Part shown: in pieces, positions 17,879-31,707 of the stretch
Position numbering within the stretch: the first letter of the stretch is position 1
Layout of the letters: each line of letters begins with the position of its first letter
Assembly (NCBI GenBank): GCA_003644925.1
Contig: QNDS01000001.1
Coordinates: forward strand, 1-44,372
DNA length: 44,372 nt
Source of the DNA: Candidatus Fermentibacterota bacterium
GTDB lineage: Bacteria > Fermentibacterota > Fermentibacteria > Fermentibacterales > JCC-6
Direction of reading: 5' to 3'
Notes under the pieces: generated by a model
Told to the model about the DNA's origin: nothing
Databases searched by the model: none
The model's input: the letters and a program-made list of their open reading frames with translations, nothing else
Program-made: the position numbers and the translations under genes

Positions 17879-18355
17879 TCAGTGGGTATCGCTTTCTATG
17901 ACGGACATCATGTTCTCAAAATCAGCTTTTATGTCCGCCCATCTTGCATCACGTAGCTTTCCTGCCGGTAATATAACAATATCCGCTCCGACACTTTTAC
18001 CGCTCTGTGCAGCAAGGCCTTTAATCCTTCTTCTTATAAGGTTTCTTTTCACCGCATTTCCACTTTTTGCGGATAGTGAAAACCCCAGACGTATATTGCC
18101 CAGGGTATTCTTAATATATACAGCCCTGAATGATACACCCCTGAAAGCTTTACCTTTCCTGAAAACTCTTCTGAACTGGTAACCTTTTTTCAGGGTTCTC
18201 TCTATCTTTATCAGGGAATCAATTTCTTTCTTCCCTTTCTCCTTCTTGCGTTGATCGTTCTTCTTCCGCTCTTTGTTGACATTCTTTTCCGGAATCCATG
18301 TCTTCTTGCCTTTGAGAGGTTGCTTGGCTGAAAGGTTCTTTTCATTAATCATCAC
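17879..18355 (-). CDS. rnpA: RNase P protein component; start uncertain (see findings)
   Basis: Conserved core [15 protein letters not shown]...[14 protein letters not shown] (RNR motif). The only in-frame canonical starts are GTG 18355 and ATG 18352, upstream of the rpmH ATG. Otherwise an ATT/CTG/ATA start around 18223-18205 is needed. Confidence 0.8.
18211..18345 (-). CDS. rpmH: 50S ribosomal protein L34
   Basis: My own translation of the minus strand gives [44 protein letters not shown], a textbook L34 sequence of 44 aa. It is missing from the ORF track because it is short. Confidence 0.9.
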
Positions 18356-18510
18356 TCTTTCCTGAATCCCTGCCTTGACGACGGTGGGATTACTGCATCA
18401 GTTTCAACGGTCAGGTAAATATCTATCTCTGGAGTCAACGATTGTGAAAGTTAGCCAATATAATCATATATGTCAAGTATTTGAGTGTACTCATTTTGGA
18501 TACCGCAGGG

Positions 18511-18610
18511 TTTTCCACAGTATGTGTTCGCTTGAAACACTACTTTTCGTTAAGTTACTGAATTTCATTAAGTTACCGTATATACCAGTTGTTGATATCC
18601 CTGTTGATAA
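18511..18610. promoter_or_regulatory. DnaA-box-like cluster upstream of dnaA
   Basis: ttttccaca at 18511-18519 matches 8/9 of TTATCCACA. tgttgatat at 18590-18598 matches 7/9 of TGTGGATAA. tgttgataa at 18602-18610 matches 8/9. Confidence 0.45.
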
Positions 18611-18667
18611 ATATCGTTGTTTGCTACATGCTATCACTTTACGCTGTATTCATTGATTGGAACGCTT

Positions 18668-19543
18668 ATGGATAATTTCAATCCCACTGACCTATGGAAC
18701 ATGTGCCTTCTGGAGGCTGAAAGAAGACTTGAATCCACCGAATTTGAGGCATGGCTGAAGAATTCAACCTACGAAGACATCAATGGTACAAGACTTGTTA
18801 TCAGGTTCCGAAACTCATTTGTCGCGGGACATGCCAAAGACCGCTTCGGAAATATAATGGAAGAGATTATCCGAACTATTTCCCAAAGGAGCGAACTCGC
18901 TCTTCAGTTCATAGGAGATCCTGCCGAACCAGGCCCTTCCGCTACAGAAAAGCTTACCCTTAATAGAGAGCCCTCTTCTTCCAATTACAGTTTCCTTCGC
19001 TCTAATTATACTTTCGATCACTTCGTCGTAGGTCCCAGTAATCAGCTGGCCCACGCGGGAGCTCTTGCAGTCAGCCGGGATATCGGCTCTACAAATTATA
19101 ATCCTTTATTCATTTACGGAGGTGTTGGCCTTGGAAAGACTCATCTTATTCAGGCTATAGCACATCACCTCAGACAGGAAGGCTCGAAGAGAACGTTCAG
19201 ATATATTTCAACTGAGCTTCTTGTGGAAACTTTTATTAAGTGTGTACTGCAGAATGACTATGCTCTCTTCCGCAAGCTCTTTCATGGTATCGACTATTTT
19301 CTAATGGATGATATACAGTTCCTCAAAGGAAAGGTTGAAACACAGGAGGCTTTCTTTCATCGTTTCAACGAGCTCCATCAGCAGGGGAAACAAATCGTTC
19401 TCACATCCGACAGGCCCCCGCACGAGCTTCCCGATCTTCCCGAAAGGCTGATAAGCCGTTTTCAATCGGGGCTTGTCGCGGATATCAAACCTCCGGAATA
19501 TGAAACACGCCTGGCTATACTTCAACTTCTTGTAAGAGACTAA
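18668..19543 (+). CDS. dnaA: DnaA N-terminal fragment (domains I-III core), ends at in-frame TAA 19541-19543
   Basis: MDNFNPTDLWN..; Walker A GGVGLGKTH; Walker B LMDDIQF; TSDRPP; ..PPEYETRLAILQLLVRD*. The track start at 18617 is an upstream extension. Confidence 0.85.
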   Translation: MDNFNPTDLWNMCLLEAERRLESTEFEAWLKNSTYEDINGTRLVIRFRNSFVAGHAKDRFGNIMEEIIRTISQRSELALQFIGDPAEPGPSATEKLTLNREPSSSNYSFLRSNYTFDHFVVGPSNQLAHAGALAVSRDIGSTNYNPLFIYGGVGLGKTHLIQAIAHHLRQEGSKRTFRYISTELLVETFIKCVLQNDYALFRKLFHGIDYFLMDDIQFLKGKVETQEAFFHRFNELHQQGKQIVLTSDRPPHELPDLPERLISRFQSGLVADIKPPEYETRLAILQLLVRD

Positions 19544-19564
19544 GAGCTGGAGGTAAGCCTGGAT

Positions 19565-20011
19565 GTGCTTGACTTCATAGCATCTTCAATAAGAAAGAAT
19601 GTGAGACAGCTGTCCGGTGTGATCCACAGGCTCGCTGCAATGTCCAGGCTTACCGGGTGCAGGGTGGATATGGATCTTGCTCAGAAGGAAATCCGTTCTT
19701 CTCTTGGCACCATTACAAGAAGGTTGACAGCTGGTTCTATTACTTCCGTTGTTGCGGAAAGTTTTGATGTTCTGCCCAAGCAGCTCAAAGGATCTGATAG
19801 AAAGCATAACGTTCTTATACCAAGACAGGTGTCAATGTCACTTATTCGGGAACTTACTTCCTTATCTCTTATGGAGATAGGATCATTTTTCTCTGGAAGA
19901 CATCACTCCACTATCCTCAATTCAATAGACAGGATCAAGGAACTCAAAGAGAATGATCCTGAACTTGAAAGAAAGATAGAAGAAATACGGAGCAAACTTA
20001 TTTCAATCTGA
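19565..20011 (+). CDS. dnaA: DnaA C-terminal fragment (AAA+ lid with sensor II, plus DNA-binding domain IV), same frame as the upstream fragment
   Basis: LDFIASSIRKNVRQLSGVIHRL (sensor II) and RQVSMSLIRELTSLSLMEIGSFFSGRHHSTILNSIDRI (the DnaA signature). In-frame GTG 19565 sits 11 nt after GGAGG 19549-19553. Confidence 0.8.
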   Translation: MLDFIASSIRKNVRQLSGVIHRLAAMSRLTGCRVDMDLAQKEIRSSLGTITRRLTAGSITSVVAESFDVLPKQLKGSDRKHNVLIPRQVSMSLIRELTSLSLMEIGSFFSGRHHSTILNSIDRIKELKENDPELERKIEEIRSKLISI

Positions 20012-31242: not shown

Positions 31243-31623
31243 ATGCCTAAAAAGGAATTGCCTTCCACGATAGATTCCATTCTCGGTTCCGGGAGTCTAT
31301 GCAAAGGAGCTATCAGAGTAGATGGCGGTCTTAGAATCGATGGTACTGTGGACGGAGAAGTTGTTGTGACCGGAACACTGACCGTCGGCCGTGCCGGTGT
31401 AATAACCGGAGACGTGACCGTAAGCCAGGCTGTTATCGGCGGCAGGATACAGGGAACGGTCAGAGCGGAGCATCAGCTGGAACTGCAGAGTGGTTCGAGC
31501 CTTGAGGGAGATATTTTCACACGATCTCTCATTATCGAGGACGGAGTTTTCTTCGAGGGATCATGCAAGATGAACCGTGTCAACGATTCTGAGCTTAATG
31601 TGGAAAATGTTGAAAAGATCTGA
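31243..31623 (+). CDS. bactofilin (polymer-forming cytoskeletal protein, DUF583)
   Basis: Repetitive beta-helix pattern: IRVDGGLRIDGTVDGEVVVTGTLTVGRAGVITGDVTVSQAVIGGRIQGTV..LEGDI. Confidence 0.85.
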   Translation: MPKKELPSTIDSILGSGSLCKGAIRVDGGLRIDGTVDGEVVVTGTLTVGRAGVITGDVTVSQAVIGGRIQGTVRAEHQLELQSGSSLEGDIFTRSLIIEDGVFFEGSCKMNRVNDSELNVENVEKI

Positions 31624-31624
31624 A

Positions 31625-31707
31625 ATTTGTGGATAACTCCGTAACTGGTTGATATATAATTAAATACAAAATCACTTAAAGTAGTTTCATAAGTAATATC
31701 CACAAAT
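31625..31707. repeat. 11-bp perfect inverted repeat carrying DnaA-box consensus in each arm, separated by a 61-nt AT-rich spacer
   Basis: atttgtggata (31625-31635) and tatccacaaat (31697-31707). The left arm contains TGTGGATAA (31628-31636), a 9/9 match to the DnaA-box consensus. Confidence 0.7.

Follow-up and report, generated by a model that had tools for sequence, protein, structure and literature searches.

Probable out-of-frame nesting of rpmH within an extended rnpA in Fermentibacterota, a Thermus-type arrangement outside Thermus

The nested rnpA-rpmH gene pair of Thermus is said to have been described by Feltens et al. in 2003. In the accessible parts of two later papers, from 2019 and 2022, this pair is presented as the only bacterial case described up to then in which a whole gene is nested out of frame in another one and shares its initiation region (PMC9841429; bioRxiv 10.1101/520783), and the two starts are given there as AUGGAUG, i.e. 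with an offset of 4 (PMC9841429). Related, smaller-scale situations are found in E. coli, where ambiguous or dual initiation sites of the AUGUG/GUGUG type occur, such as those of pqiA, tamA and narQ, and where two SD motifs serve the two frames of tamA (PMC9841429). As for the expression of rnpA itself, low levels of RnpA are said to be commonly due to GUG and UUG starts (PMC9945441).

The window, i.e. the whole stretch of 44,372 nucleotides of DNA from an uncultured Fermentibacterota bacterium that was analysed here, contains an rpmH-rnpA pair that can be compared to these systems. The genes are arranged as dnaA (opposite strand)/rpmH-rnpA-yidD-yidC and the GC-skew minimum is at 18-20 kb of the window, which together indicate a classical origin-proximal locus. 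In the ORF list, rpmH occupies positions 18211 to 18345 on the minus strand (ATG 18345, TGA 18213-18211) and encodes the 44-aa ribosomal protein L34. The protein matches the Pfam family Ribosomal_L34 (PF00468, E=1.4e-19) over profile positions 1-42 of 44, i.e. it is a full-length family match, and it is identical or nearly so among the relatives. The extended rnpA ORF runs on the same strand from ATG 18352 to TGA 17879 (positions 17879 to 18352, 157 aa, or 158 aa from the in-frame GTG at 18355-18353) and fully contains rpmH, which it covers in the -1 frame (offset of 7). Its ATG is located 7 nt and its GTG 10 nt 5' of the rpmH ATG, both of them in a frame that differs from that of rpmH.

The conserved core of RnpA takes up positions 17903 to 18202 (minus strand): the match to Pfam Ribonuclease_P (PF00825, E=4.3e-19, 69 bits with a cut-off of 22.3) is confined to ORF residues 52-151, and the basic motif that is conserved in this family is present. 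The window RnpA also matches the solved structures 6OV1, 1D6T, 1NZ0 and 1A6F, and as residue 1 of the canonical protein in these structures aligns at about ORF residues 43-47, roughly 42-50 residues of the ORF are extra. From ATG 18352 onward there is no in-frame ATG, GTG or TTG before the GTG that encodes V102 (18050 to 18052, minus strand), and this codon is not a plausible start because it is inside the conserved core, within ..SGNAVKRN... The only canonical starts left in the rnpA frame of the window are just upstream of rpmH. The initial annotation had described rpmH as lying entirely inside the rnpA ORF in another frame, without a canonical rnpA start below it until the GNAVKRN motif; every coordinate of that description checks out, and the further elements that it had pointed to, namely ATT 18223, CTG 18214 (CTGA together with the rpmH TGA), the ATA codons at 18211 and 18205 and the stretch AGGAAAGAG at 18363-18355, are all present.

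The best explanation, to which we assign a probability of roughly 0.6, is that rnpA of the window is productively translated from ATG 18352, probably alongside a weak non-AUG route. With equal confidence, and on comparative evidence, we regard the pair as a nest of the Thermus type that would have evolved independently in Fermentibacterota, i.e. as a new case of a known arrangement. According to this explanation, ribosomes recruited at the rpmH leader, where AGGA is found 7 nt upstream, would initiate at AUG 18352, read all of the L34 gene in the -1 frame and then the RnpA core. This would yield an RnpA of 157 aa, about 50 of which would form a Lys-rich N-terminal extension with a sequence that is predicted to be almost unconstrained. 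The majority of the ribosomes would take the rpmH AUG, 7 nt further on, so a single leader would split initiation between abundant L34 and scarce RnpA. A far weaker backup by the rpmH stop, at CUG 18214 (which overlaps the UGA), AUA 18205 or AUU 18223, would probably coexist with the nested route, and this non-AUG backup alone would sustain three of the relatives.

The SD-like stretch AGGAAAGAG (18355 to 18363, minus strand) is upstream of both starts. It consists of AGGA (18363-18360), placed 7 nt before ATG 18352 and 14 nt before the rpmH ATG, and of AAGAG (18359-18355), placed 9 nt before the rpmH ATG; rpmH probably uses this adjacent AAGAG. The presence of AGGA correlates with nesting: it is found in the nested genomes (as CGGA in L045), is absent from L028, L030, L031, L032 and L048, and is CGGG in L050. 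In clade I, the clade of the window as defined below, positions -16 to -7 are 100% conserved. The rpmH leader at 18364-18410 (GAAACTGATGCAGTAATC...CGTCAAGGC...) is about 90% conserved in clade I and is recognisable in the outgroups. A fold of the leader RNA gave nothing significant (z=0.32), an Rfam search of the window returned no match, and scans for sigma-70 promoters and terminators were uninformative. The conserved rpmH leader is probably a promoter or leader element.

The junction was then compared among about 50 Fermentibacterota rpmH-rnpA loci, each of which was dissected individually. Forty-three loci were fetched via RnpA core motifs, which makes the sampling unbiased as to the extension, and 9 more via individual proteins; six open-frame loci (L044-L047, L051 and L052), which were retrieved by extended gene calls and are biased towards openness, were left out of the statistics. 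L034 and L049 were excluded as chimeric or truncated metagenome contigs. In both of them dnaA-derived or unrelated same-strand sequence stands in place of the 5' half of rpmH, probably because of a chimeric assembly at the divergent dnaA/rpmH junction. The tree was a simple NJ tree built on the downstream rnpA-yidD-yidC DNA, and f1 is our name for the rnpA frame where it passes through rpmH.

In a protein search, Candidatus Aegiribacteria and Fermentibacteria were the source names of the closest proteins. For 29 database relatives (69-97% identity) the called rnpA has 157-170 aa and shares the MINEKNL... extension, and in more distant relatives RnpA is called at about 108-131 aa and begins with MKRTLKK or MEKTLKK. 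The Met of these shorter proteins aligns with I51 of the window, i.e. with an ATA codon (18203 to 18205, minus strand) that is located 5 nt past the rpmH stop at the ancestral rnpA start site. The codon at this site is ATG in L031, L032, L048, L005 and L028, TTG in L010, and ATA, ACA, GTA, AAA, ATC, GAA, ACG, TCG or ACT in the other relatives; P0026 has T at the ancestral start position. Outgroup and sister loci (L011, L013, L015; L031, L032, L048) have a canonical ATG 5-11 nt past the rpmH stop together with 1-4 stops in f1 (one each in L031 and L032, three in L048). Comparison of the aligned junctions shows that rnpA ancestrally started at an ATG 5 nt past the rpmH stop; this ATG lacked its own SD and is now ATA in the window.

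Clade I comprises the window/L025, L001-L008, L010, L026, L028, L029, L030, L044, L046, L047, L051 and L052. Its members have the upstream sequence GTG-ATG-ATT and an open f1, with the exception of L006 and L030, and their ancestral-site codon is mostly ATA, otherwise ACA, GTA, AAA, ATC, GAA or ACT. Both starts coexist with an open f1 in L005 and L028, which have ATG at the ancestral site, and in L010, which has TTG there. A second group, the L009/L045/L050 subclade, is placed inside the sister clade and has GTG(-10) alone upstream and ACG, TCG or ACT at the ancestral site. Judging from these distributions, the ancestral ATG was independently lost at least two times, in clade I and in L009/L045/L050, each time in an f1-open background with an upstream start. 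An open frame plus ATG(-7) or GTG(-10) is present in 16 of the 19 lineages without the canonical start. Note that in at least 8 open-frame genomes the ancestral codon is now ACA, GTA, AAA, GAA, TCG or ACT; these are not one-base neighbours of AUG, and the site therefore cannot be the start in these genomes.

A second, different type of overlap is found in the same phylum-level group. In the deeper-branching L022, L023, L037, L038 and L040-L043 the rnpA ATG is inside rpmH (+94, MPGDARDA...), and the two genes share the final 41 nt of rpmH, with rnpA read in the other relative frame.

Three relatives have no canonical rnpA start. L006 has three TAG stops in f1. L030 has GTG-ATA-TAG immediately before rpmH, so that a TAG stands between the upstream GTG and rpmH. 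L050 has a TAG in f1 at i=113, where i counts the nt that follow the first base of the rpmH ATG, and its ancestral-site codon is ACT. The rnpA genes of all three are intact, with dN/dS values of 0.10-0.21, the same as those of their neighbours. Since rnpA is intact and under selection in these genomes while the canonical routes are blocked, some weak (re)initiation at a non-AUG codon close to the rpmH stop must take place. This leads to an alternative that we consider rather unlikely: (re)initiation could be the only route, in which case the extension would never be productively translated and the open f1 would be inherited chance. RnpA would then be made at canonical length and at a low level by ribosomes that, after the UGA, start at the near-cognate CUG 18214, AUA 18205 or AUU 18223. 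A non-canonical start that suffices in some lineages could in principle be the true start everywhere. The ancestral ATG, 5 nt past the rpmH stop and without an SD, also makes rnpA appear coupled to rpmH already, and for this reason we find that the data suggest a long reliance of rnpA in this phylum on termination-reinitiation coupling to rpmH. In E. coli, RnpA is about 130-fold rarer than L34 (PMC9945441). As RnpA is needed at about 1% of the L34 level (PMC9945441), a start of about 1% efficiency could do, and leaky near-cognate reinitiation is plausible.

The candidate codons for such a route differ in their distribution. CTG48 (18212 to 18214, minus strand), which is in the rnpA frame and overlaps the rpmH TGA as CTGA, is a candidate weak reinitiation codon and the only near-cognate common to L006, L030 and L050; in addition, ATA51 is present in L006 and L030, and ATT45 in L006 and L050. 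The (re)initiation-only alternative can point to CTG48 being present in all focal- and sister-clade loci but L029 (which has CTA), and to ATA being kept at the ancestral site in 11 lineages. We considered the conservation of CTG48 as a sign of a CUGA coupling start and rejected it: CCC-TGA is conserved phylum-wide, in 40 of 49 loci, whatever the frame of rnpA, so CTG48 is a by-product and not a selected start, which together with the CTA of L029 speaks against this alternative. A tie between a blocked upstream route and an ATA kept at codon 51 was rejected as well, as L050 has ACT and the numbers are too small. ATT45 (18221 to 18223, minus strand) is a further candidate non-canonical start in the rnpA frame, with AAGGGAAG just 5' of it, and the NCBI RnpA record of L050 (P0034) begins at the homologous ATT; the codon is not conserved, being ACT, TTT, GTT or TCT in other relatives.

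The CCC-TGA just mentioned is the rpmH terminus (window 18211-18216), and L34 in this group ends with ..L(I/V)P. In E. coli, a UGA preceded by a C-terminal Pro makes a poor termination context. We speculate that ribosomes might pause and reinitiate more readily at the junction because of this Pro.

We then asked whether the open frame is maintained by selection. A stop in f1 arises when an rpmH codon ending in T is followed by a codon beginning with AA, AG or GA, and rpmH has 10 stop-prone third positions where T would be synonymous. When rpmH codons were resampled from local or general codon usage, f1 was open in about 5% of the trials (0.02-0.06). This probability was dropped as the main argument, since many GC-richer outgroups with canonical starts are also f1-open, often through composition alone, and it was replaced by AT-matched outgroups, tree-based counts, simulation and a genome-wide codon-context control. 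Among the AT-matched outgroup genomes, 1 of 9 is f1-open. Parsimony on clade I gives 28 synonymous changes at the 10 stop-prone sites, 3 of them to T and all three in L006, leaving 0 of 25 elsewhere. Without L006, this 0/25 compares to 11/39 changes to T at non-prone, T-permissive sites (Fisher p=0.0045) and to 8/18 at the same sites on outgroup branches (p=0.0003); when L006 is included, the values are 3/28 versus 11/39 at non-prone sites, which is not significant (p=0.13). In a neutral simulation on the clade I tree, starting from a stop-free ancestor and calibrated to the observed 3 changes per site, the probability that at least 14 of 15 tips are stop-free was 0.02 at piT=0.156 and 0.0001 at piT=0.30. 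Ordinary genes carry T at stop-prone contexts in 16-25% of the cases in the window genome and in 16-30% in the window and clade I, which means that the conservative piT is realistic and that there is no genome-wide codon-pair bias. Openness in a single genome is marginal evidence against chance; across the clade it is significant. The three stops of L006, all in one lineage, form the pattern that would be predicted for a relaxation after a first hit.

The upstream start behaves in a similar manner. ATG(-7) is retained in 15 of 16 clade I lineages, and positions -5 to -2 vary in clade II. The other alternative frame through rpmH contains at least one stop in every locus, for instance the TGA in the starting ATGAAA; the nests are always in the same frame because the codon structure of L34 leaves only one frame that can be opened. 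Nested translation is favoured because of the avoidance of stops in f1, the kept ATG(-7), the coincidence of both start losses with an open frame and the drift of the old start. (Re)initiation as the only route is at odds with the stop avoidance, the clustering of three stops in the single lineage L006, the conserved ATG(-7), the two losses of the canonical ATG in f1-open backgrounds and the drift to non-start codons in at least 8 genomes.

The N-terminal extension itself, 49 Lys/Glu-rich residues from ATG 18352 to the ancestral start codon (18206 to 18352, minus strand), is mostly rpmH read out of frame, with its first codon positions corresponding to rpmH third positions, and it has no Pfam match. 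When related to that of yidC, the synonymous divergence of rpmH amounts to 0.71 for the nested clade and to 0.88-1.17 for the outgroups. We considered this as a sign of conservation of the extension at the protein level and rejected it, as the modest drop is inseparable from stop avoidance. An AlphaFold model of the 157-aa RnpA had a mean pLDDT of 42, too low to inform on the extension. On the basis of its sequence the extension appears to behave as a readable spacer that is barely constrained, rather than as a conserved domain.

These results bear on the two options that the initial annotation had offered for rnpA. Its Thermus-like option is favoured by the open frame, the conserved upstream ATG and the two origins, with the qualification that a non-AUG route is also present in the group; its other option, a non-canonical start, describes a route that does operate in the group (L006, L030, L050), even though the relatives favour nesting. 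The suggestion of an independent case outside Thermus holds on comparison with the Fermentibacterota relatives. It had further proposed to look for a conserved extension in related genomes: the frame does stay open, but the extension protein is not conserved beyond the constraint that rpmH imposes. A single SD-like sequence for both starts, as it had suggested, may not apply, with AGGA 14 nt away from the rpmH ATG and AAGAG as the probable element of rpmH. Relatives with an ATG after rpmH and stops in f1, which it had counted against nesting, do exist (L031, L032, L048); they are sister lineages in the ancestral state, and nesting in clade I is not refuted by them.

Two other readings need to be discussed. 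One holds that the arrangement is an annotation artefact or that rnpA is decaying, so that the openness of f1 is due to chance and the function of rnpA is fading, e.g. because a protein-only RNase P is encoded elsewhere. A single A/G-rich rpmH is f1-open by chance in about 5-17% of cases, and a private nonsense codon in dnaA indicates that single-base errors or mutations do occur in the window assembly. Nevertheless, 30 columns of the RnpA core are invariant among 31 relatives, its dN/dS is 0.15-0.25 in pairs with the window and 0.10-0.25 for each focal-clade lineage that was tested, the rnpA ORF is unbroken in every complete focal or sister locus examined, and L025 and L001 have exactly the same junction sequence as the window. 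As the core is under purifying selection, we regard this reading as largely refuted and very improbable. The other reading is a programmed -1 frameshift, in which ribosomes from the rpmH AUG would slip near the rpmH 3' end and produce an L34-RnpA fusion; we know of no such fusion. For this mechanism f1 would need to be open merely past the last exception stop (i=116-135), and an A-rich region (AGAAAGAAATTG) is present. However, inspection of the sequence revealed neither a canonical slippery heptamer (X XXY YYZ) nor a downstream structure, and a frameshift would not explain the conserved ATG(-7) and the stop avoidance over the 5' two-thirds of rpmH, so that we find it scarcely credible, even less so than decay.

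Returning to nested translation, a broader evolutionary picture can be drawn, which we put forward tentatively and with slightly less than even confidence. In this picture rnpA is in transit among three modes of initiation, i.e. an rpmH-coupled AUG, an upstream AUG or GUG that is read through L34, and non-AUG reinitiation, and nesting is a convergent attractor that may have arisen at least two times here and once in Thermus. Within the same tentative picture, living intermediates would carry two, one or none of the canonical modes. If this is true, nesting of rpmH in rnpA would be a convergent evolutionary attractor and not an oddity of Thermus, and the group would provide a natural series for the birth and loss of overlapping genes. 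Independently of this picture, a separate case, probably with two origins, in an unrelated phylum would mean that the nested layout is repeatedly reachable. Fermentibacterota supply what Thermus lacks, namely sisters that retain the ancestral layout, genomes that carry both starts and genomes in which the nested route is lost. Comparisons and reporter constructs can therefore be used to test how an overlapping gene is born and how ribosomes are shared out between two adjacent starts.

There are also consequences for annotation. In L044-L047, L051 and L052 a 157-162 aa rnpA is called and rpmH is missing from the gene calls, in L050 rpmH is called and rnpA is called from ATT, and the rnpA product of L003 (P0031) carries the NCBI label 'partial'. 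The nested layout leads to systematic annotation loss or inconsistency, so that L34 or RnpA can seem missing or broken in MAGs.

A few other features of the window should be pointed out. The dnaA gene (18617 to 20011, plus strand) has an in-frame TAA at 19541-19543 (..LLVRD*ELEV..). GAA is present at this site in each of the 10 relatives used for comparison, all of which have an intact DnaA (446-447 aa). The TAA is a private G-to-T change in the assembly and stems from an error in the reads or the consensus, from a minority variant or from a genuine nonsense mutation in this essential gene. DnaA-box-like 9-mers (TTATCCACA, at most 1 mismatch) occur 18 times in the window, with 8.5 expected. 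Three of them, including the only perfect box, are within about 105 nt at 31599-31704, and three more, at 18511, 18602 and 18667, are in or near the dnaA-rpmH intergenic region. One of these clusters may be oriC or a DnaA-regulated site.

Finally, it is instructive to compare the general features of this locus to the known systems. The order dnaA/rpmH-rnpA-yidD-yidC is that of the ordinary bacterial rpmH-rnpA operon, and the low-level expression of rnpA would be shared with those operons that have a weak, coupled rnpA start; the sister genomes analysed here have an ATG 4-11 nt past the rpmH stop. Unlike the ordinary operon, the window has no ATG, GTG or TTG from the start region of rpmH up to the conserved core. 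With the dual initiation sites of E. coli the locus shares two start codons in different frames, only a few nt apart, that would compete for initiating ribosomes. The differences are that the starts are 7 nt apart here and do not overlap, that both products are conserved essential proteins, and that the overlap covers a whole gene. The similarities to Thermus, as far as that system is covered by the accessible parts of the papers cited at the outset, go further. In both, rnpA contains all of rpmH in another frame, its start precedes that of rpmH by a few nt in one initiation region, and the relative frame is the same, since the offsets of 4 in Thermus and of 7 and 10 here are all 1 mod 3. Both have a long basic N-terminal extension of RnpA, which is predicted from the genes in our case, and in both an abundant and a scarce protein would be linked at the step of initiation, as we infer for Fermentibacterota. 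On the other hand, Fermentibacterota are an unrelated phylum, the spacing of the starts is 7 nt (ATG) or 10 nt (GTG) as opposed to the 4 nt given for Thermus, and there are probably two adjacent SD-like elements here in place of the one GGAGG of Thermus. Unlike Thermus, Fermentibacterota have a variant that starts with GTG, natural intermediates in the form of genomes with both starts or with neither, and evidence of a parallel non-AUG route.
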